Origin: a virus
Reading direction: 5' to 3' (one strand)
Virus record (IMG/VR): IMGVR_UViG_3300033153_013649
Span: 64,001-128,000 of that record
Length of the DNA: 64,000 nucleotides
Shown here: positions 17,852 through 57,711 of the stretch, one piece after another
Layout: every line of letters begins with the position of its first letter
Position numbering within the stretch: position 1 is the first letter of the stretch
Translations under genes and position numbers: made by a program
The notes under the pieces: model-generated
The model's input: only the letters and a program-made list of their open reading frames with translations
Database searches by the model: none
What the model was told of the DNA's origin: nothing

Positions 17852-18055
17852 ATGCCAACCTATGATTTTAAATGTACAAAATGTAAAAACGAATGGGAAG
17901 AATTTTTTAAATCAATGAATTTTAAAGTGCCAAAATGTCCAATATGCGGAGCTTTAGCAAAAGAAATAATTTCTGCACCCGTTGGATTTAAATTTATTGG
18001 TCCCGGGTTTTATGAAACAGATTATAAAGAAAAAAAGAAAAAGGATGACCTATAG
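17852..18055 (+). CDS. FmdB-family Zn ribbon protein
   Basis: MPTYDFKCTKC...CPICG...F.GPGFYETDY. Confidence 0.9.
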   Translation: MPTYDFKCTKCKNEWEEFFKSMNFKVPKCPICGALAKEIISAPVGFKFIGPGFYETDYKEKKKKDDL

Positions 18056-18237
18056 AGATGGGGTAAAAATTAAATTTGAATATCTTTGAGCGAATGGCGC
18101 AAATGGTATACGCAGTGGATTACGCAGACAGTTCTAGACCTCTGGCGTGTTGATTATTAAACGAAAAACAAGTAATAATTAATAGATAATATGAGAAGCT
18201 TGATAAATTATTAAAAACAAAAGAAAGGAAATAACTA

Positions 18238-18498
18238 ATGTTAGAAAAAGAAAGTGTAGAAGAGTTAAATCTTTTTAAGCTTGTTGAAAGGGGTGATGCG
18301 GTATGCAGCAAAGCCAAAGAGCTTACAAACCGCGTAGATCATGTGGTTTCTAGACTAATAGGTAGTAGTCAAAAAACAAATAAAAAAGAGGAGGCAAAAC
18401 CAACGTGTCCTAATAATTTGTTTGATTTATTAGATGACCATTTTAATAGAATCATGGAAAGTTTAGTTAAAGCTATAAATGGGCTTGATAAATTATAA
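18238..18498 (+). CDS. hypothetical helical protein, paralogue 1
   Basis: Similar to 18607..18870; shared leader AAACAAAAGAAAGGAA. Confidence 0.65.
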   Translation: MLEKESVEELNLFKLVERGDAVCSKAKELTNRVDHVVSRLIGSSQKTNKKEEAKPTCPNNLFDLLDDHFNRIMESLVKAINGLDKL

Positions 18499-18606
18499 TA
18501 TTAGTTGAGAGAGTAGCGAAAGATTATAGGGGATGCTTGGTGGATGTGTTAAGTTACGTTAAATAGTTAAGGAAATGTTCTTACAAACAAAGAAAGGAAT
18601 TAAACA

Positions 18607-18870
18607 ATGTTATCATCAGATGAAAAAACAAAGGATACTATGAAGATTATAGAACTTGTTGAGCAGGCTAGGATTGTATTGAATTGTTCGTGTTCTCTTA
18701 GTGAAATCGCAAGAACTAAAGTATCTACATTGATAGGTCGTGGACCAGAAGCTCCAGAGGAGAATAAAAAAGAAGAGAATCCTGATAATCTATATGATAA
18801 TGTCATGCATTTACTTAAAAGAACCCTTGAGAGTTTACACGAGATCGAATATGAGCTTGATAGATTGTAA
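18607..18870 (+). CDS. hypothetical helical protein, paralogue 2
   Basis: LVE..LIG..P.NL.D..R.LESL..LD.L shared with the previous ORF. Confidence 0.65.
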   Translation: MLSSDEKTKDTMKIIELVEQARIVLNCSCSLSEIARTKVSTLIGRGPEAPEENKKEENPDNLYDNVMHLLKRTLESLHEIEYELDRL

Positions 18871-18878
18871 ACTTTATT

Positions 18879-19016
18879 GAACGAGTGGCGGAATAGGTAG
18901 ACGTTACCATCTGGACTTGGTTAGAGCTTTGGCTTGGGGTGACCGTGGTAAGAGGGGTTCGACTCCCCTTTTAAACAGATAGTTTAACCATGCAGGCTCG
19001 AGTCCTGCCTCGTTCT
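18879..19016 (+). ncRNA. tRNA-like RNA with a second tRNA-like element nested in the anticodon arm
   Basis: Acceptor GAACGAG/CTCGTTC, D-arm TGGCGGAATAGGTAGACG, T-arm GCAGG-CTCGAGT-CCTGC, internal T-arm AGGGG-TTCGACT-CCCCT. Confidence 0.6.
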
Positions 19017-19224
19017 TTAAGGTAATAATTGGTAGTGAGAAGGAAGTCAATTAAACAATTAAAATTATTGAATAACAAATGTATCATCTGGGAGTAAGTT
19101 GATTTTTGGTCAGGTTGTATTTATTGTAACGGTCAGATCTATGAATATGTTCAGATTGATATTTTATAGGATGAAAATTGGAAAGAAGAGTTTAGATTCA
19201 AATATATTATAGGAATAAAAAAAG

Positions 19225-20346
19225 ATGAGCACATTAATTTCTGAAGTAACAACTATTAATTCTATTCGTTCTCATCCAAACGCGGACAGACTTGAAATTG
19301 CTACAGTAAAGGGCTGGGATTGTATTGTTCCAAAAAACAAATATGAGACCGGGGATAAAATCATTTATATTCCTATTGATGCAGTATTAACTCAAGAATT
19401 TGCGGAGTTAATAGGGGTAGATAATTATCTTTCTAAAGGAAGAGTTCGAACCATAAAACTTCGAGGTGAATATTCCCAGGGATTAATAATCGATGTTGTT
19501 CATTATTGTAATAAATTTATGGAAAAAAATCCGAACGCTACTCCAGTATTTCCAGATCAGATTGCGCTTGGAACAAATGTAACAGAAATGCTCGATATTA
19601 CAAAATATGAACCTCCGCTCCCTCCAGTTGAATTCCGTGGAAAAATGAGAAATAGAAATCCATTTTTCAGTAAATATATAAGCATTGAAAATATTAAGAA
19701 TTTTCCAGATATATTTAAAGAGGGAGAAGAAGTATTAATTAGTGAAAAGTTACATGGAACAAATAGTAGATTCGGGATTGTTAGAAATGAAAATGATCCA
19801 GAAGTTTTAGAATTTCGTGTTGGTTCTCATAATATAGATTTATGTGAAACAGAATCTAATATATATTGGAAGATCGCTAGAAAATTTGATATAAAGAAAA
19901 GATTAATTTCTTGGGTTGATTCTTATAATAAACGGTTAGATATATTTCCTCTTCCCGGAGTTGAAAAGATAAAACAATTTATTTTTTATGGTGAAATCTA
20001 TGGTCCTGGAATTCAGAAAGGAATGCATTATGGTCTTTCTGAACCCGGTATAAGATTTTTTGACATTGAATTTAATGGTAAATATCTCGAAACAGATCAA
20101 ACTAGATTAATTCTTGATTCTCTTAATTTAGATTATGTACCAGTACTTTATGAAGGACCTTGGAAAAAGGAATTAATGGATCTTGCAAATGGCTTATCTA
20201 CTATTTGTAAAGATCATATTCGAGAAGGAATTGTTATTCGTCCTAAGATTCAGAATAAAAGCTGGGAACATATAAAATTAAAGAAGAAGATTTTAAAACA
20301 TATTTCTGAAAAATACCTACTTAAAGATTATGGAGATAATCATTAA
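19225..20346 (+). CDS. RNA ligase, DRB0094 family (N-terminal OB domain plus Rnl2-like)
   Basis: HPNADRLE, LRGEYSQGL, EKLHGTN, YGEIYGPGIQ, FFDI, REGIV. Confidence 0.92.
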   Translation: MSTLISEVTTINSIRSHPNADRLEIATVKGWDCIVPKNKYETGDKIIYIPIDAVLTQEFAELIGVDNYLSKGRVRTIKLRGEYSQGLIIDVVHYCNKFMEKNPNATPVFPDQIALGTNVTEMLDITKYEPPLPPVEFRGKMRNRNPFFSKYISIENIKNFPDIFKEGEEVLISEKLHGTNSRFGIVRNENDPEVLEFRVGSHNIDLCETESNIYWKIARKFDIKKRLISWVDSYNKRLDIFPLPGVEKIKQFIFYGEIYGPGIQKGMHYGLSEPGIRFFDIEFNGKYLETDQTRLILDSLNLDYVPVLYEGPWKKELMDLANGLSTICKDHIREGIVIRPKIQNKSWEHIKLKKKILKHISEKYLLKDYGDNH

Positions 20347-21988: not shown

Positions 21989-22223
21989 GAGAATATTCTC
22001 CGCGCGACTTCTCAGTATGGAATCCTGAAGTTGACAATTAAGAGATCACGCCTGGGAGTAGTGTTAGTAGGAATTGGGAAGTTCCGAAATCATCGCGAGA
22101 TGAGCGTACTGATTTCCACCATAGGCCTGGTGTTTGACCAGCGTCCTATGCGGTTAGAATCATCTTTATCTGGAGAGAGCATGGTACCTACTCGAATCCA
22201 GGGTCTGCGCGGAGAATATTCTC
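21989..22223 (+). ncRNA. candidate ~235 nt structured ncRNA of unknown class
   Basis: Perfect 17 bp terminal stem GAGAATATTCTCCGCGC/GCGCGGAGAATATTCTC, several internal hairpins, GC-rich, followed by a T-tract. Confidence 0.6.
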
Positions 22224-24813: not shown

Positions 24814-26016
24814 ATGCTTGAAAGTAAATTTTTAAAAGATTTAAAAAAATCTCAAGGGGAAAGAACAATAATAGGATTCAATATGGCGCCAGAAGTAGCT
24901 GACGATAATTGGTTTTCTACTGGTTCTAAGATGCTTGATATGCAAATGAACGGGGGGAAATTAAATTTAGGAGGAGTTCCCGGAGGAAAGATTTCAGTTT
25001 TTGCTGGTCCAAAAACTTGTGGAAAGACTTATTTTGCTTCTCAAGTAATAAAGGATTTTTTGGAAAAAGAACCCCTCGGAATAGCTTTGTATTATGATAC
25101 AGAGGAAGCAATGACTCCAGCGAGACTTTTTAATTCTGGAATTTCGAAAGAAAACATCGAAAGATGTATTATTGTTCCGATTGTTACTCAAGAAGAATTA
25201 TGGTTAAAAGTTGCAGAAGCTTATAGAAATATTGAAACAGAAAACGTAAGGATCATGATTGTTGTAGATTCAGTTGGTGGGTTATCTTCTCAAGCTGCTT
25301 TTAATGATATTGAAATAGGGAATATTCCAAAAGCTTCTATGGGTAGAGAACAAAAAATGAACAAAGAAATCGCAAAATATATTATGCATAAAGCAAATTC
25401 TGGAAATCATGGTCCTTGTATTCTTATTTCTCATGTTTATAAAGATCTTAATGCTCCAAATCCAAAATATGCTACGAATGTTATTTCAGGGGGAGAAGGG
25501 ATTGGATATTTTAATTCGAACACTGTAATTTTTACTAGATCAAAATATAAAGAAGAAAAAGATTCATCAATACATGAAGTAAATGGAATTTTAGTAAGAT
25601 CAATTATTACTAAATCTAGACTTGCTCGAGAAGAAACGATTACTCAATCTCTTATTCATTTTAACAGAGGTGTTATTCCATATTTCGGATTCGTTTCAAT
25701 GTTAGAACAAGCCGGATTTTTATGGAAAGCCGGAAATAAATATCAGCTCGATGGTCCGAATCCAGATTATGTAAAAAATTCTAAGAAACCAAATGAAAGA
25801 TACCCGGGTCTTGGACCAACATATTGGGCAAAAGAATTAAACGCGAATGCTTCTCTTATCCAAGAGCCTCTCAAAAAACTTGAACCTTGGACAATTAAAC
25901 AATTTGCAATTGGAAAATTAAGTATGTCTACAAATGACGAATCTCTCGAAGTTCCTGAAAGTACTTTGGATTTTAGTAGAGTTGATGAAGATGAAATTTC
26001 AAGTACAGGGAAATAA
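24814..26016 (+). CDS. uvsX: RecA-like recombinase
   Basis: STGS, AGPKTCGKT, YDTE, VVDSVGGL, SGGEG, KSRL. Confidence 0.92.
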   Translation: MLESKFLKDLKKSQGERTIIGFNMAPEVADDNWFSTGSKMLDMQMNGGKLNLGGVPGGKISVFAGPKTCGKTYFASQVIKDFLEKEPLGIALYYDTEEAMTPARLFNSGISKENIERCIIVPIVTQEELWLKVAEAYRNIETENVRIMIVVDSVGGLSSQAAFNDIEIGNIPKASMGREQKMNKEIAKYIMHKANSGNHGPCILISHVYKDLNAPNPKYATNVISGGEGIGYFNSNTVIFTRSKYKEEKDSSIHEVNGILVRSIITKSRLAREETITQSLIHFNRGVIPYFGFVSMLEQAGFLWKAGNKYQLDGPNPDYVKNSKKPNERYPGLGPTYWAKELNANASLIQEPLKKLEPWTIKQFAIGKLSMSTNDESLEVPESTLDFSRVDEDEISSTGK

Positions 26017-27398
26017 TGATAGAATTAAACGGTATTATAATAAGTAAGTTGCTTTCTGATAAGGAATATGCTAAAGATGTAATTCCTTATCTTAAAGAGG
26101 AATATTTTGATGAACCAAATGATAAAAGAATAGTTAAACTTATTCTCGAACATTATCATCAATTTAAAACTTCTCCTTCTTCTGATGATATTGAACTTGA
26201 TCTTAGAAAATTACCAGAAAATTTAGTTGAAGATGCAATAAGTAGACTATTAGAAATTAAAGAAATTCATAATACTGAATTAAATAAAGAAAAACTTCTT
26301 AAAAATACAGAAAGATGGATTCAAGAAACTTCTGTTCAGAATGCTATTATAAAATGTGCAAGAGAAATTCAAGAAGGAAATGTTAAATCTTTTGATCATT
26401 TTCCAAAAGTTCTAAAAGAAGCTTTATCAGTAGCTTTTGATAAATCGATCGGTCTAGATTTCAAAGATCCGAATTGTATAAGGGAAAGATATAAAAAATA
26501 TGTAATAAAACCAGAAAAAATAAAATTAGGAATTGATAGATTCAATTTTATAACTGATGGTGGATATGAATATTCGACTCTTAATCTTTATATAGCTCCA
26601 ACAAATGTTGGGAAAACCTGGAAATTAATTGATGATTCAGCTTCTTTAATTAAACTTGGATATAATGTATTATACGTAACCCTTGAGATGTCAGAAGATA
26701 ATATAATGCAAAGAATAGAAGCTAATCTATTCGAATTACCAACTTCTGAATTTAAGAATTTAACACTTAAGGAATATGCTAACTATTTAAGATCAATTAA
26801 AGCAAAAGCAGGGAAAAAGTTGGGAAGATTATTTGTAAAAGAATATCCTACTGGATATGCTACAGTAGCAAATTTAAGTCTTCTTTTAGATGAACTTGAG
26901 CTGAAGAAAAATTTTATTCCTCATGTTTTAATAGTTGATTATATGGGAATTATGAAACCCTTAGAACCTCGATGGGCGAATTCGTATGAAAAACAAAAAA
27001 TTATATCAGAAGAACTTAGAGGATTAATGGTAGAAAGAAAAATTTGTTGTATTTCTGCTATTCAAACAAATAGAGAGGGATATAATGTTTCTGATTTTAA
27101 TCTTACAGCTACTTCTGAATGCCTTGACTTTTCGACATTAGTAAAAAAGAAAGTTAATAATAAATATGAAAATATTAAAATAATTGATTTAAAAGAAGGA
27201 GATATAATAAAGGGAAATAATAAAGATGTTAAGGTTAAAAGAATTTTCCCTATAAAAATTAAGAAAGCTTATAGGATTAAATTAAAATCAGGAAAAGAAA
27301 TTATTTGTTCAGCAGATCATAAATTTCCAACATCTGAAGGTATTGGAACAATTAATAATGGGAAAATAAAAATAGGAACAAAACTTAATTCCCAATAA
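26016..27398 (+). CDS. DnaB-like replicative helicase gp41, N-fragment ending in split intein IntN
   Basis: APTNVGKT, TLEMSE, KEYPT, VDYMGIM, SAIQTNREG, then TSE|CLDFST...CSADHKF. Confidence 0.93.
   Translation: MIELNGIIISKLLSDKEYAKDVIPYLKEEYFDEPNDKRIVKLILEHYHQFKTSPSSDDIELDLRKLPENLVEDAISRLLEIKEIHNTELNKEKLLKNTERWIQETSVQNAIIKCAREIQEGNVKSFDHFPKVLKEALSVAFDKSIGLDFKDPNCIRERYKKYVIKPEKIKLGIDRFNFITDGGYEYSTLNLYIAPTNVGKTWKLIDDSASLIKLGYNVLYVTLEMSEDNIMQRIEANLFELPTSEFKNLTLKEYANYLRSIKAKAGKKLGRLFVKEYPTGYATVANLSLLLDELELKKNFIPHVLIVDYMGIMKPLEPRWANSYEKQKIISEELRGLMVERKICCISAIQTNREGYNVSDFNLTATSECLDFSTLVKKKVNNKYENIKIIDLKEGDIIKGNNKDVKVKRIFPIKIKKAYRIKLKSGKEIICSADHKFPTSEGIGTINNGKIKIGTKLNSQ
27120..27395 (+). other. 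split intein N-part (92 aa), gp41-1-like
   Basis: Block A CLDFSTLV; block B GKEIICSADHKFPT. Confidence 0.9.
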
Positions 27399-41402: not shown

Positions 41403-41418
41403 ATTTTGTAAAAAGTTA

Positions 41419-41447
41419 TTGACAAATTCGATTTTATTTAGTATATT
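41419..41447 (+). promoter_or_regulatory. sigma70-type promoter driving the rnpB-like RNA
   Basis: TTGACA-17-TATATT. Confidence 0.8.
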
Positions 41448-41750
41448 ATAAATGAAAGGAACTTTAAAACATCAAAGAATGGAGGGCTGAATTAAATCAG
41501 GCGAGGTAACTCGACGGAAGGTACAATAGAAACTATACCGCCACGTTTGCCCACGTGGTAAGGGTGAAAAGAGAAGGCCTAAGAATCTTCTCTATTATCG
41601 GTAACGATTAATAGACGTAAACCTTCCCCCTCCCTTCTTTTTGATGTAATTTCAAATAAGTTAAGAGAATTTGGACTAATGAATAAGAAGGCTAAAATAA
41701 ATGTTATTTTTAATAGAATTTCGGGTACAAATCTCTTTAAAGATTTATAT
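41447..41750 (+). ncRNA. rnpB: RNase P RNA homologue (divergent)
   Basis: GGCGAG-GTAA-CTCGACGGAAGGTACAATAGAAA..ACCGCC..GGTAAGGGTGAAA..GGTAAC..GTAAACC..TAAATAAATG..AGAATTTCGG in canonical order. Confidence 0.8.
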
Positions 41751-41764
41751 AAAAGAGAGGTAAC

Positions 41765-42136
41765 ATGAAAACATCAAAAAGATTTGGCGATTTATTTAGA
41801 GAATTACGCCTTAAAAACAGATATACACTAAGGGCATATTGCAGAAAGTTCAACCGTGATCCTGCTTATATTAGCAGAATTGAAAGAGGAATAACTCCCC
41901 CACCGGAAAACAGTGAAGAAATCGAAAATTATGCTAGATCATTTAATTTAGAAGAAGGATCAAGACAGTGGATTGAATTTTATAATTTGGCTGTAGTTAG
42001 TAGAAAGAAAAAATCAGAACCCATATTATCCGAGAAAGAACTTGTTGGTAAATTACCATTATTTGTAACAACAACTAGCGGAAAGCCTCTTGATAATGAT
42101 AAGTTAGATAAATTGATTGATATAATAAGAGATTAA
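41765..42136 (+). CDS. XRE-family HTH transcriptional regulator
   Basis: FGDLFRELRLK..TLR...DPAYISRIERG..PPP. Confidence 0.88.
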   Translation: MKTSKRFGDLFRELRLKNRYTLRAYCRKFNRDPAYISRIERGITPPPENSEEIENYARSFNLEEGSRQWIEFYNLAVVSRKKKSEPILSEKELVGKLPLFVTTTSGKPLDNDKLDKLIDIIRD

Positions 42137-42144
42137 ATATTAAC

Positions 42145-42223
42145 GGGGCACAGGACTGCTAGGGGTGGTCGTCTCATTTGCGATGAGAAAAATTTCAGGT
42201 GGGTTCGAATCCCACGTGCTCCA
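42145..42223 (+). tRNA. tRNA-Ala(TGC)
   Basis: GGGGCAC/GTGCTCC with G3:U70; TCTCA-TTTGCGA-TGAGA. Confidence 0.9.
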
Positions 42224-42273
42224 CAGATGGAAATTATAGATCAGAAAAAAGAAAGAATAAAAAGGAAAAACTT

Positions 42274-48914: not shown

Positions 48915-48924
48915 CTACAAATTA

Positions 48925-49040
48925 TTTAGGGATCCACGGCCAAGCAAAATTAGATACGCACTTGGGTATTCATTAATAAAGCTTTATTTCGAATACGTAG
49001 GATGCTAACAGGTCGGTGAAAGACCGGCTGGATTCTTAAA
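48925..49040 (+). ncRNA. structured tRNA-like ncRNA of unknown class
   Basis: TTTAGGGATCCA/TGGATTCTTAAA closing stem, CCAAG/CTTGG, GTATTC/GAATAC, GTCGG-TGAAAGA-CCGGC. Confidence 0.55.
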
Positions 49041-49049
49041 TAATATTAT

Positions 49050-49902: not shown

Positions 49903-51363
49903 TTGTATATAGCGGTTGATTCTACTAACGAGAACTTTTTAGTTCGAAAACTAGGTCAAGATGGCAAATCATCAATTACAAAGATGCCATTTCGAGCCTC
50001 TTTGTTTATAGCTTCAGAAAAAGCTTCGAAAGAATATATAGGATTTAAAACTGGAAAGCATCTCAAAAGATTTGATTTCTTTTCTAGACAAAATTACTGG
50101 GATTTTAAAAATAAAATGAAAGATGTTGGAATATATGGAGATATTTCTCCGATATTTCAATTTATACCAAAACTTAATATTAGATCCGAGAATATATCTT
50201 TTCTTCGTCCTTGGGGATTAGATATTGAGGTTTATTCAGAAAAAGAATTTCCTTATCCAGAAAGAGCTATAATTTATCCTATTGTATCTTTAACTTTAGG
50301 GGATTTAAGAAAAAAGAAATATTATACTTTCGTATATGATATGGACGGAAAATGTACCCTTAAATCTCAACCGAATTGGGAAATTTTCGTTTATAGAAGC
50401 GAAGAAGATATGATGAATTCTTTTTCAAAATTCTGGAGACAAAACATAGCTAATATTCATATTCTAACAGGCTGGAATATTAATAAATTTGATATTCCTT
50501 ATATAATTAGAAGAATGAATTATCTTTTTACTGGAGATCCAGAAAAAATTTGTAAAGAGGTTCGGCTTCTTTCTCCGTTTAGAAATATCAAAAATAAAAC
50601 AACAAAATATTCAGAAACAGAATATATTATTGCTGGAATTCCGATTCTTGATTATTTAGCAGTATTTAAAAAATTCAATTTTCAATCCCGTCGTTCTTTT
50701 AAACTCGAAAATATAGCTCAAGAAGAACTAGGTCATGGAAAACTTGAAAATCCTTATTCTTCACTTCATGAATTATACAGAAAAGATATAAATACTTTTA
50801 TAAATTATAATAGAAAAGATACAGAACTTCTTGAAGAAATCGATAATAAATTCAATTATTTGAATTTTATGATTACAATTGCTCTTATTACTAAAATCAA
50901 TTATGAAAACGTTTTTAGTCCTATCCGCTGCTGGGAATCTCTTATATATAATAAATTAATAGAGCAAAATATTGTTACTAATCCAGCTAGAAGATTTACT
51001 AAAACACGTGAATATCTCGGGGCCTATGTAAAACTTCCAGAGACTAAAATGTATAGAGATATTATTTCGTATGATCTTGTACAGCTCTATCCTTCAGTAA
51101 TTAGGGCAGCAAATATATCTCCTGAAACTCTTATTGAAGGAGATTATGAAGAGAATGTAACGATTGAAAAATTTATGCTTGATGAATTCGAATCTAAAAA
51201 AGCACATAAAAATAACCAGATTTTACTTCCAACCGGAAATTATTATAAAAAAGAACCTCAAGGGGTATACCCTATTTTAATGGAAGAATTGTTCTTCAAA
51301 AGAATAGCTATTAAAGAGCAAATCAAAGAAAAAGAAAGAGAATTAAAAAAATTATTACAATGA
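49903..51363 (+). CDS. family B DNA polymerase, N-terminal subunit (gp43A-like: NTD, 3'-5' exonuclease, motif A)
   Basis: ExoI LDIEV, ExoII GWNINKFDIPY, ExoIII YNRKD, YLGAYV..P, SYDLVQLYPS, NISPET; stops in the fingers. Confidence 0.92.
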   Translation: MYIAVDSTNENFLVRKLGQDGKSSITKMPFRASLFIASEKASKEYIGFKTGKHLKRFDFFSRQNYWDFKNKMKDVGIYGDISPIFQFIPKLNIRSENISFLRPWGLDIEVYSEKEFPYPERAIIYPIVSLTLGDLRKKKYYTFVYDMDGKCTLKSQPNWEIFVYRSEEDMMNSFSKFWRQNIANIHILTGWNINKFDIPYIIRRMNYLFTGDPEKICKEVRLLSPFRNIKNKTTKYSETEYIIAGIPILDYLAVFKKFNFQSRRSFKLENIAQEELGHGKLENPYSSLHELYRKDINTFINYNRKDTELLEEIDNKFNYLNFMITIALITKINYENVFSPIRCWESLIYNKLIEQNIVTNPARRFTKTREYLGAYVKLPETKMYRDIISYDLVQLYPSVIRAANISPETLIEGDYEENVTIEKFMLDEFESKKAHKNNQILLPTGNYYKKEPQGVYPILMEELFFKRIAIKEQIKEKERELKKLLQ

Positions 51364-54599: not shown

Positions 54600-55835
54600 T
54601 TGGACATATCTCAAGAAATCTTATCGGATATTATTGTTTATATGAAATACGCTCGTTACAATGATAAAAAACAAAGAAGAGAAACCTGGGAAGAAGTAGT
54701 AAGACGTAATAAAAGAATGCATCAAAAAAAATTTCCTGAATTAAAAGAAGAAATTGAAGAAATTTATAAATTAGTCTTAGATAAAAAAGTTTTGCCTTCA
54801 ATGCGTTCAATGCAATTTGCTGGGAAATCAATTGAGATTTCTCCAAATAGAATTTATAATTGTGCTTATTTACCAATTGATAGTATTGATGCTTTTCATG
54901 AAATTATGTTTTTGCTCCTTGGAGGTACAGGAATTGGAATTTCTGTTCAAAAACATCACGTAGAAAAACTCCCGAATATTATTAGACCTTATACTAAAAG
55001 AACTAAACGATTTCTTATCGGAGATTCTATAGAAGGATGGGCAGAATCTATTAGAGTATTAATTAAATCTTATTTTCATGGCGGATCTACAATTAGATTT
55101 GATTTTTCTGATATTCGTCCTAAAGGAGCAAGATTAATTACCTCGGGGGGAAAAGCTCCCGGGCCTCAACCTCTTAAAGAATGTCTTTTGAAAATTAGAG
55201 GATTATTAGATGAAAAAGAAAACGGGGATAAATTACAGCCAATAGAAGTTCATGATATAATATGCTATATTGCTGATACAGTACTTGCAGGTGGAATTAG
55301 ACGAGCAGCTTTAATTTCTCTTTTCTCTGCTAAAGATATGGATATGATGAATGCCAAAACAGAAGAATGGTTTACTCATTATCCTCATAGAGGCAGAGCT
55401 AATAATTCTGTTGTTTTAGTTCGTCATAAGATCAAGAAAGAATATTTTGATGAAATATTTGAAAGAATGAAATTATCTCGATCCGGAGAGCCTGGAATAT
55501 TTTTTACAAATGATCAAGATATTGGGACCAATCCGTGTTTAACTGGGGATATGTTAATATCTACTGAAAGTGGAAATATTTCTATAAAGGAATTAGTTGA
55601 ATCAGAATTTGATTTACCTAAAGTTTATACTTATAATGAAGCTTCAAAACAAGTTGAATTGAAAAAGATTAAAGATAAACTCCTTACAAAGAAAAATGCT
55701 AATATTATTAAACTTGAATTAGAAGATGGAAGTGAAATTAAATTAACCCCAGATCATAAAGTATATACAGAAAACCGTGGATGGATTGAAGCTGCTCAAT
55801 TAACAAATAAAGACATTCTTTTTCAAATCGATTAA
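54600..55835 (+). CDS. nrdJ: class II (B12) ribonucleotide reductase, N-fragment ending in split intein IntN (55536-55832)
   Basis: RRETWEE, LPSMR, YNCAY, GGIRRAALI, R.RANNS, SGEPG, GTNP|CLTGD..TPDHKVYT. Confidence 0.93.
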   Translation: MDISQEILSDIIVYMKYARYNDKKQRRETWEEVVRRNKRMHQKKFPELKEEIEEIYKLVLDKKVLPSMRSMQFAGKSIEISPNRIYNCAYLPIDSIDAFHEIMFLLLGGTGIGISVQKHHVEKLPNIIRPYTKRTKRFLIGDSIEGWAESIRVLIKSYFHGGSTIRFDFSDIRPKGARLITSGGKAPGPQPLKECLLKIRGLLDEKENGDKLQPIEVHDIICYIADTVLAGGIRRAALISLFSAKDMDMMNAKTEEWFTHYPHRGRANNSVVLVRHKIKKEYFDEIFERMKLSRSGEPGIFFTNDQDIGTNPCLTGDMLISTESGNISIKELVESEFDLPKVYTYNEASKQVELKKIKDKLLTKKNANIIKLELEDGSEIKLTPDHKVYTENRGWIEAAQLTNKDILFQID

Positions 55836-55885: not shown

Positions 55886-56710
55886 ATGAAAACTTTAATT
55901 CAAAAATTTTATTTAGATTTTTCGAAAGGAAATATATTTGAAATACCAGAAGAATTAAATATTGAATTTCAAATATATCTTTTAAAAGAAATAGATAAAC
56001 ATGGAAAATCAGCATATAGTTATTCTAAAAGAATATTTCTTAGAAATAAATATATTAAAGAAAATTATTCTGAATTTTTAATATTAAAAAAAGAATTAGA
56101 AGATCTTTATAATAGTGGATATGGATTTAAAAGAATCGCAAAACTAATAGATCTTTCTTATACAAAAACCAGATTTTTATTTTCTCTTTGTGAAATAAAA
56201 ACAAGAAAAGGTCAATCGATTGTAACAGATGAACTCAGGAAATTAAGATCTGAAAATAGTAAAAAACATTATAAAAATAGAACTGGATATTTTAAAACAT
56301 TTGAAAGACGAACAAATAAATCAATAAGAGGTGTTCAAGGATATTATTATAATAAATGGTTTAATAAATATGTTTGGTTGAGAAGTACTTATGAATATAT
56401 CTTTGCTAAATGGTTAGATTTTCAAAATATTAAATGGGATATTGAAGTTGAAATGTTTAAACTTAAAGATTCATGGTATAGACCAGATTTTTTTATATAT
56501 AAAAATAATAAAGTTGTAAAAATTGTAGAAATTAAAGGATATAAATATAGAGAAAATGAAAAATCTAATGAATTAAATAAACAATTAAATATTGATGTTA
56601 TTCAAATTGAAAATATTAATCCTTATATAATAAATTCAAGTTATGGGAAGGAATTAAAACTTTGGAAAAAAGTACGTTTAAACGAATTAGAATTAAAAGA
56701 ATTACAATAG
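55886..56710 (+). mobile_element. free-standing PD-(D/E)xK homing endonuclease between the split intein halves
   Basis: LRSTYE..FAKWLD, YRPDFF, VEIKG. Confidence 0.8.
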
Positions 56711-57711
56711 AAAAAAATGAAGATGTATATGATTTAAAGATAAAAGATAACCATAATTTTTTCGCTAATGGATTATTAGTACATAATTGCGGGGAAATTT
56801 CTCTTCGTCCCTTTCAATTCTGTAATGTAGTTGAAATAAATGCTTCTGATATTGAAACACAAGAAGAATTAGAAAATAGAATAAAAGCAGCAGCTTTTAT
56901 TGGAACTCTTCAAGCAACATATACGGATTTTCATTATCTTCGAGATATTTGGCAAACAACAACAGAAAAAGATGCATTGCTTGGAATAGGAATGACTGGA
57001 ATAGCTTCTGGAAGAGTTCAAAAGCTCGATATTGAATCTGCTGTACGAAAAGCATTGTATCAAAATACTAGACTAGCAAATAAAATTGGAATTAATAAAG
57101 CTGCAAGACTTACAACTATAAAACCAGCTGGTTCTTCTTCTATAGTTCTTGGTACTTCTTCTGGCATCCATCCATGGCATTCTCAATATTATATTAGAAG
57201 AATCAGAGTTGGAAAAAACGAAGCAATTTATAAATATCTTTCTAAAAATCATCCAGAATTATTAGAAGATGATAAATTTCGTTCTCATGATCGATCAATA
57301 ATTTCTATTCCTCAAAAAGCTCCAGAAGGAGCAATAACAAGAGAAGAAACTGCAATCGAATTATTGGAAAGAGCTAAAGATATTCATCTAAGATGGATTC
57401 GTCCTGGACATAGATCTGGATCTAATTATAATAATGTATCTATTACTGTTTCCGTTAAAGATGATGAATGGGAAGATATAAAGAAATGGATGTGGAAAAA
57501 TAGAGAATATTATAATGGAATAACAGTTCTTCCCTATGATGGAGGAACATATATTCAAGCTCCGTTTGAAGAATGTTCGAAAGAATATTATGAAGAATAT
57601 TATAATAAATTAAAAAAAATTAATACAAAAGAAATTATTGAATTTCAAGATAGTACAAATTTATCAGGGGAAGTGGCTTGTGGGGGAGGAATGAGTTGTG
57701 AAATAATTTAG
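56662..57711 (+). CDS. nrdJ: split intein IntC (56662-56787) plus NrdJ C-fragment
   Basis: EDVYDL..HNFFANGLLVHN|CGEISL..QFCN, TIKPAGS, SSGIHP, ACGGGMSCEI. Confidence 0.92.
   Translation: MEKSTFKRIRIKRITIEKNEDVYDLKIKDNHNFFANGLLVHNCGEISLRPFQFCNVVEINASDIETQEELENRIKAAAFIGTLQATYTDFHYLRDIWQTTTEKDALLGIGMTGIASGRVQKLDIESAVRKALYQNTRLANKIGINKAARLTTIKPAGSSSIVLGTSSGIHPWHSQYYIRRIRVGKNEAIYKYLSKNHPELLEDDKFRSHDRSIISIPQKAPEGAITREETAIELLERAKDIHLRWIRPGHRSGSNYNNVSITVSVKDDEWEDIKKWMWKNREYYNGITVLPYDGGTYIQAPFEECSKEYYEEYYNKLKKINTKEIIEFQDSTNLSGEVACGGGMSCEII

Follow-up and report, generated by a model that had tools for sequence, protein, structure and literature searches.

The RNA element described here lies in a phage with a complete genome of 159,837 bp (about 160 kb) and direct terminal repeats, of which bases 64001-128000 form the 64,000-nucleotide window that was analysed; unless stated otherwise, coordinates refer to this window. 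The genome has a GC content of 29% and its large genes all share one strand. By gene content the phage is a distant T4-like myovirus of the virulent type, an assignment that is based on the major head protein, the terminase, two sheath paralogs, the portal, topoisomerase II and a gp46-like gene. Its major head protein is about 30% identical to the head proteins of cultured phages. The phage encodes 14 tRNA genes, a CCA-adding enzyme and two RNA ligases, providing a tRNA-centred setting, and the neighbourhood of the element is the tRNA, CCA-enzyme and RNA-ligase region of this genome. The element itself sits in a gap of 362 nt (41403-41764) that is flanked by two plus-strand ORFs. The downstream ORF (41765-42136, plus strand) encodes an XRE-family HTH protein of 123 aa (Pfam HTH_31, E 4.4e-7). 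Three homologues of this gene, among them one in a P22-like phage and one in a bacterial XRE-ImmA pair, are found in unrelated contexts and without the RNA. Eight nucleotides past the XRE stop codon begins a gene (42145-42224) that is called as tRNA-Ala(UGC) by ARAGORN alone; it escapes the Rfam tRNA model at a threshold as loose as E<=5.

Directly upstream of the element lies a plus-strand promoter of the form TTGACA-17-TATATT (41419-41447), which matches the sigma-70 consensus at 11 of 12 positions; it is preceded by an A-rich tract and has TTTAGTATATT as an extended -10 region. The promoter ends 20 nt ahead of the helix that closes the element. A 5' leader, GAAAGGAACUUUAAA (41454-41468), would follow if transcription starts where the position of the -10 hexamer predicts, and only about 14 nt then separate the likely start from the first helix, bearing out the remark in a preliminary description of this DNA that the promoter leaves almost no room for P2/P3. 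The three best promoter-like sites in 16 kb all read TTGACA-17-TATATT, and they stand before tRNA cluster 1, before the RNase P-like element and before the last tRNA cluster. Genome-wide, 11 near-identical copies of about 45 nt were found (A-tract, TTGACAA, TTTAGTATATT, then ATATAG), all of them on the plus strand; those within the window are at 1935, 9775, 21232, 22243, 34711, 41419, 48020 and 63485. Nine of the 11 stand ahead of an RBS or ORF, and the remaining two ahead of tRNA cluster 1 and of the element described here, respectively. They probably represent the early promoter class of the phage, read by the host sigma-70. The position of such a stereotyped promoter is good indirect evidence that the element is transcribed. 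A plus-strand terminator was not found after the element, and the RNA would thus be the 5' part of a transcript that reaches the XRE gene and the tRNA-like gene at 42145. The XRE gene, downstream and co-oriented, probably shares this transcript, and the tRNA-like gene is probably co-transcribed as well.

Nucleotides 41474-41632 (plus strand) match model positions 61-218 of the 367 positions of RF00010, the bacterial RNase P class A family, with 72.6 bits (E 3.2e-22 for a region of 451 nt and 4.6e-20 for the whole window), and the same match is returned in a scan of the whole genome. It was obtained in a permissive Rfam covariance-model scan; curated thresholds report tRNAs only. The score stays under the RF00010 gathering threshold of 100 bits, and it does so for no other reason than that half of the model is absent. 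Hence, what lies at 41474-41632 is the specificity (S) domain only, P7-P14, of a type A RNase P RNA. The RF00010 alignment assigns every part of this domain on the plus strand: P7 (41482-86 with 41628-32), P8 (41487-41500), P9 with a GUAA loop (41501-15), P10/P11 (41516-25 with 41616-27), J11/12 with T-loop 1 (41526-37, with AUAGAAAC at 41526-33), P12 (41538-63), J12/13 with T-loop 2 (41564-70, GUGAAAA, within GGUGAAAA at 41562-70), P13 (41571-92) and P14, again with a GUAA loop (41593-41613). Taken as a whole, the S domain spans 41482-41632, as indicated by RF00010 and by the fold z-score given below. The preliminary description had placed an RNase P RNA at 41447-41750 with a recognisable P8-P14 region. 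The latter is confirmed and extends to P7, and the family assignment holds for the S domain, but the element covers only 41469-41647, about 180 instead of 304 nt. The covariance-model search proposed at that time therefore did not come back empty; it returned a significant match, and one that covers the S domain alone.

The S domain is intact at the level of base pairing. In the rebuilt covariance-model alignment, 21 of 48 model pairs show the consensus bases, another 22 have both partners replaced and remain canonical, 2 are broken and 3 are gapped, and not a single pair is changed on one side only. All broken and gapped pairs are located at helix ends, and 43 of the 45 scorable pairs are canonical. 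Strongly conserved unpaired positions agree with the consensus in 35 of 44 cases; the nine differences include two in J5/6-P6, two in L8, two in L13 and one base of J11/12. A pattern with 22 two-sided and no one-sided changes is the hallmark of a long evolution under structural constraint, in which decay is not visible, and all 22 compensatory changes could predate the loss of the full-length ribozyme context. This bears on the possibility that the element is a relic. According to this explanation a full-length RNase P RNA gene, which the phage carried itself or had acquired from a host, was stripped of its catalytic half by recombination in the hypervariable tRNA island and a promoter landed alongside, leaving an RNA that is functionless or merely a stable 5' structure protecting the XRE mRNA. 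We regard such an origin as less likely than not, yet as the main rival of the explanation preferred below, and the undecayed pairing with both T-loops preserved is one of the arguments against it.

Six residues at the core of the double T-loop module, AG..A and UG..A, are nearly invariant (Lehmann et al., 2013; PMC3664808). All six are present in the phage element, within 41526-37 and 41564-70 (cores AGAAA at 41528-32 and UGAAA at 41565-69), and so are all helices that support the head-to-tail arrangement of the T-loops (P10/11, P12 and P13/14). The GNRA loops L9 and L14 are both kept as GUAA. Folding of 41466-41650 yields a z-score of -6.16, and none of 200 shuffled sequences folds as well. 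S domains of RNase P in isolation fold by themselves (PMC6783828, PMC8457005).

The real element, about 180 nt long (41469-41647), is somewhat larger than the S domain, and the additional nucleotides form a closing helix. Its 5' strand, ACAUCAAAGAAUG (41469-41481, plus strand), is paired in the minimum-energy and in the centroid fold; its 3' strand, CCUUCUUUUUGAUGU (41633-41647, plus strand), is defined by the folds and by comparison with the full-length alignment. Where this 5' strand lies, native RNase P RNA has J5/6 and one half of the P6 pseudoknot, its 5' strand. Native molecules use the 8 nt that precede P7 (AUA + GGGC + A) for J5/6 plus the P6 5' strand, which is one of the connections between the domains (PMC6783828). 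The phage has AAAGAAUG at these eight positions, and they pair with an additional segment on the 3' side, CUUCUUUUU; CAUC/GAUG comes next. Native type A RNAs, in which P5 abuts the 3' strand of P7, have no counterpart to the 3' closing strand of the element. The resulting pairing is an irregular helix of about 17 bp that is continuous with P7 and buries the strand that forms the interdomain P6 pseudoknot in native RNase P. The flank duplex has a predicted energy of -10.5 kcal/mol; among flank pairs with this geometry elsewhere in the genome 0.9% do as well, and among shuffles 0.5% (p ~0.005-0.01). S domain and closing helix are thus predicted to be a discrete folding unit. Sealing of the S domain exactly at its natural boundary is suggestive of adaptation, as far as a single sequence can tell. 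A helix that closes the domain with such precision, and a GC content of the S-domain region kept at 45-50% within a genome of 29% GC, also speak against a relic.

RNase P RNA is a textbook ribozyme of two domains, each of which folds without the other and can be isolated in vitro. One question is whether the other half is encoded nearby. Downstream of the closing helix an AU-rich, unstructured spacer of 117 nt (41648-41764, plus strand) leads to the RBS of the next gene, and 41648-41790 has no structure beyond chance (z +0.45, 133 of 200 shuffles fold as well) and a GC content of about 22%. In an nhmmer search of the element and its flanks, in which every filter was switched off and E values up to 100 were allowed, a profile built from 18 full-length RNase P RNAs aligned to 41498-41571 only, and the lack of any trace of a catalytic (C) domain in either flank at this permissive cut-off again argues against a relic. 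The C-domain helices P1-P3, P5, P15 and P18 are absent around the element, a P4 signature scan found no complementary pair of CR-I (GGAAAGUCC...) and CR-V (AGAAnnnGGCUUA) in the flanks or the genome, and a permissive Rfam scan (E<=5) with the RNase P families gave no C-domain match anywhere in the 160 kb. Likewise, a permissive Rfam scan of the GC-rich gap at 18000-19300 gave no RNase P catalytic half; this gap contains an unusual tRNA-like RNA. The preliminary description had proposed a divergent P4, built from CR-I at 41453-41469 and CR-V at 41717-41730. This cannot be upheld, because the best duplex between the two segments reaches only -5.5 kcal/mol and uses other bases. The first segment, which corresponds to the short 5' leader, does not match CR-I, and the spacer that contains the second shows no RNase P similarity. 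Nor is the minimal ribozyme variant supported, for which P4, P1-P3 and P15-P18 are missing from the flanks and from the 160 kb genome. That a minimal but complete ribozyme uses these two segments as its P4 is highly improbable: AGAAUUUCGGGUAC shares AGAA and a few further letters with CR-V, but the segments are unpaired, P1-P3, P15 and P18 are absent, all searches are empty outside the S domain and the tail is unstructured. The lack of P4 predicts that the RNA does not cleave pre-tRNA.

Protein partners of an RNase P are equally missing. RnpA, PRORP, PIN_5/HARP and PIN proteins were not found in the complete genome of 159.8 kb. In the structure of the Thermotoga maritima holoenzyme, RnpA touches the catalytic domain and the 5' leader rather than the S domain. 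An RnpA decoy, another function suggested in the preliminary description, is consequently not supported, since the phage has no RnpA and this protein contacts the part of the RNA that the element lacks.

An S domain without its catalytic half might still act in an enzyme made of two pieces, in which it joins an unrecognised catalytic-domain RNA in trans. Candidates for the second piece would be a structured RNA of 235 nt at 21989-22223 or a C-domain-only RNase P RNA that the host or a co-infecting phage supplies. An active enzyme can indeed be assembled from S and C domains provided as two RNAs, even across species (PMC6783828), and the phage keeps L9, the GNRA loop that docks onto P1 in the C domain, as GUAA. 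However, the genome has no C-domain match at E<=5, and the P6 strand, which holds two-piece enzymes together best, is locked in the closing helix. Two-piece enzymes of E. coli without the P6 link are barely active (PMC6783828). Of the S-domain features that contact the C domain, L9 keeps its GNRA loop, L8 is altered yet A-rich, and the P6 strand is part of the closing helix. A phage-encoded two-piece enzyme is not supported, and we consider an action in trans of this kind improbable altogether. The 235-nt RNA, whose presence is a point in favour of a second piece, has about 48% GC, a z-score of -4.74 and a perfect terminal helix of 17 bp with the palindrome GAGAATATTCTC. It lies directly upstream of a copy of the stereotyped promoter and the gene of the CCA-adding enzyme. 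It has no match among GenBank phages, and the sole IMG/VR match to one of its 19-mers (L247) is a chance match within a coding region. A second multi-branch RNA of about 120 nt (48921-49044), with a 16-bp closing helix and a z-score of -5.39, is found right after the last tRNA cluster; it contains a GGUC-GGUGAAA-GACC hairpin with a loop that resembles a T-loop. Neither RNA belongs to an Rfam family at E<=10 in a search of 472 nt, and both were therefore dismissed as hidden C-domains. For the 235-nt RNA this also follows from its few words resembling CR-I and CR-V, which cannot form P4.

A further question concerns relatives of the element. Blastn against GenBank phages found no similar sequence. 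The flanking proteins have no relatives in IMG/VR, the neighbouring genes are unique to this phage, and in two phages with a 55% identical capsid protein, both fragmentary, the S-domain RNA is absent. Motif scans for the S domain were run on IMG/VR (four scans), JGI metagenomes (two) and GTDB genomes (two), and matches were classified by RF00010 or nhmmer. Full-length RNase P RNAs made up about 60 of the matches, and the remainder were a few copies truncated at contig ends and chance matches; no other S-only copy turned up in the interior of a sequence. The stand-alone S domain is a singleton in the scanned collections; as the scans require exact conserved words, diverged S-only RNAs may have escaped them. 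The best identity of the S domain among 65 RNase P RNAs compared is about 65-70%, only a core of 43-73 nt aligns in 401 Bacteroidota genomes, and scanning GTDB genomes and metagenomes for the motif of the element itself gave no exact match. Thus, the element was not copied recently and unchanged from any of the lineages sampled. A singleton without conserved relatives, placed among genes that are likewise unique to the phage, with no terminator and no demonstrable partner, speaks for a relic, and a suitable ancestor is plausible because large viral records, such as that of a 420 kb phage, can carry full-length RNase P RNAs. The literature searched describes neither a natural stand-alone S domain nor an RNase P RNA encoded by a virus.

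The RNA of the large phage just mentioned (L123; IMGVR_UViG_3300044557_000292, 307574-307935, minus strand) is a full-length, divergent RNase P RNA that covers model positions 1-367 with 148 bits. Its record is a complete phage genome of 419,707 bp with terminal repeats. Full-length RNase P RNAs were also seen on viral records of 260-480 kb (L118, L139, L143, L176, L182, L186 and L196), part of which may be host DNA. A provirus record of 25 kb (G112; L200 and L183) has two RNase P RNA matches, one of 272 bits and a degenerate one of 115 bits, and may represent a duplication of rnpB at a prophage border. The two matches hint that rnpB can be duplicated at prophage borders, which would favour reading the element as an attP-type fragment of a host rnpB, carried for integration into that gene. 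This idea has next to no probability for the phage studied here. The genome encodes no tyrosine or serine recombinase, integrase or resolvase, the phage is a T4-like myovirus of the virulent type, and the fragment comes from the middle of the gene, not from its 3' end, and has no near-identical host counterpart. The lack of an integrase in itself effectively refutes it.

The most plausible explanation, to which we assign a probability of roughly one half, is that the element is an autonomous, non-catalytic tRNA-elbow-binding RNA of about 180-195 nt. A non-catalytic tRNA-elbow binder was among the options of the preliminary description, and it is the one we favour, since the double T-loop and the S-domain helices are intact and the domain is a separate folding unit. 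From the sequence we infer transcription of the element, the ends of the RNA, its binding to tRNA and its biological role. The phage's own stereotyped promoter of the sigma-70 type would drive synthesis of the RNA, and the compact S domain would probably be released or stabilised from the 5' part of the transcript. The double T-loop is a platform for the tRNA elbow that is shared by RNase P, the ribosomal L1 stalk and T-box leaders (PMC3664808). Because every helix of the S domain and both T-loops are kept, the element most likely docks the tRNA elbow without cutting. The G19:C56 face of the elbow of tRNAs, pre-tRNAs or tRNA-like RNAs of the phage would dock on the T-loops. The likeliest roles would then be to hold or escort tRNA-shaped RNAs during maturation or repair, or to compete with the host RNase P for precursors, roles that we derive from the presence of 14 tRNA genes, the CCA-adding enzyme and the two RNA ligases. 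Contact to the T-stem-loop accounts for only part of the substrate affinity of RNase P, and the isolated S domain may therefore bind tRNA weakly.

The element belongs to the XRE 5' UTR and no terminator intervenes, which also allows a regulatory function in cis. In this case the S domain would bind tRNA and control translation of, or read-through into, the XRE gene, comparable to stem I of a T-box. The sharing of the double T-loop module with T-box leaders (PMC3664808) fits such a sensor, as does a pyrimidine-rich 3' strand that can pair with the XRE RBS at -9.4 kcal/mol. Yet this pairing is nonspecific, as 24% of the RBS regions of other genes pair equally well, and it is far weaker than the native helix, which has -22 kcal/mol. 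The 117-nt spacer is not structured beyond chance and holds no terminator/antiterminator pair, and the XRE homologues are without such a leader, so the linkage is not conserved. A tRNA sensor in cis is therefore quite improbable.

Compared with the S domains of type A RNase P RNAs, such as E. coli M1 RNA and those of T. maritima and T. thermophilus, the phage element shares P7-P14, both T-loops, the GNRA loops L9 and L14 and the AA bulge of P11. In contrast to these RNAs it is not attached to a catalytic domain, and J5/6 and the P6 strand have become part of the closing helix. From the type A consensus it further deviates in L8, L13 and one base of J11/12, and its stems are AU-rich. Laboratory S-domain constructs (PMC6783828) have nearly the same boundaries as the phage S domain, which likewise is a separate RNA. 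However, those constructs are man-made and always paired with a C-domain RNA, whereas the phage element is natural and has no detectable partner. With the distal region of T-box stem I and with the ribosomal L1 stalk the element has the double T-loop in common, and T-boxes bind tRNA without cutting it, but the architectures are unrelated, and a specifier, discriminator or expression platform was not found in the phage element.

Tentatively, and with slightly less confidence than even odds would imply, we propose that the element is the first natural RNase P RNA domain that turned into an independent, non-catalytic binder of tRNA shape. It would escort the phage's own tRNAs and tRNA-like RNAs through CCA addition and ligase repair, or sequester host precursors; a less likely use would be to supply the missing half in trans to a catalytic-domain-only RNase P RNA. 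If this is true, the elbow-reading module of RNase P has a use of its own. The phage RNA would then be a small (about 180 nt), naturally optimised and self-closing tRNA-elbow binder, possibly suited as a tool, and could serve to gauge the affinity and specificity that the double T-loop platform alone provides. Should the element turn out to be a relic, it would be a clean case of a ribozyme domain boundary acting as a natural breakpoint.

Other parts of the window deserve mention. At 18879-19016, upstream of an RNA ligase gene (19225-20346), lies a tRNA-like RNA with an acceptor-like stem of 7 bp and two T-arm-like hairpins, GGGGTTCGACTCCCC and GCAGGCTCGAGTCCTGC, which is called neither by ARAGORN nor by the Rfam tRNA model. 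It could be a ligand of an elbow-binding RNA. A DnaB-like helicase and two pieces of ribonucleotide reductase match intein splicing domains (26016-27398, 54600-55835 and 56662-57711), and the ORF of a family B DNA polymerase (49903-51363) ends early within the polymerase domain, suggesting that several genes of this phage are split by inteins or introns.
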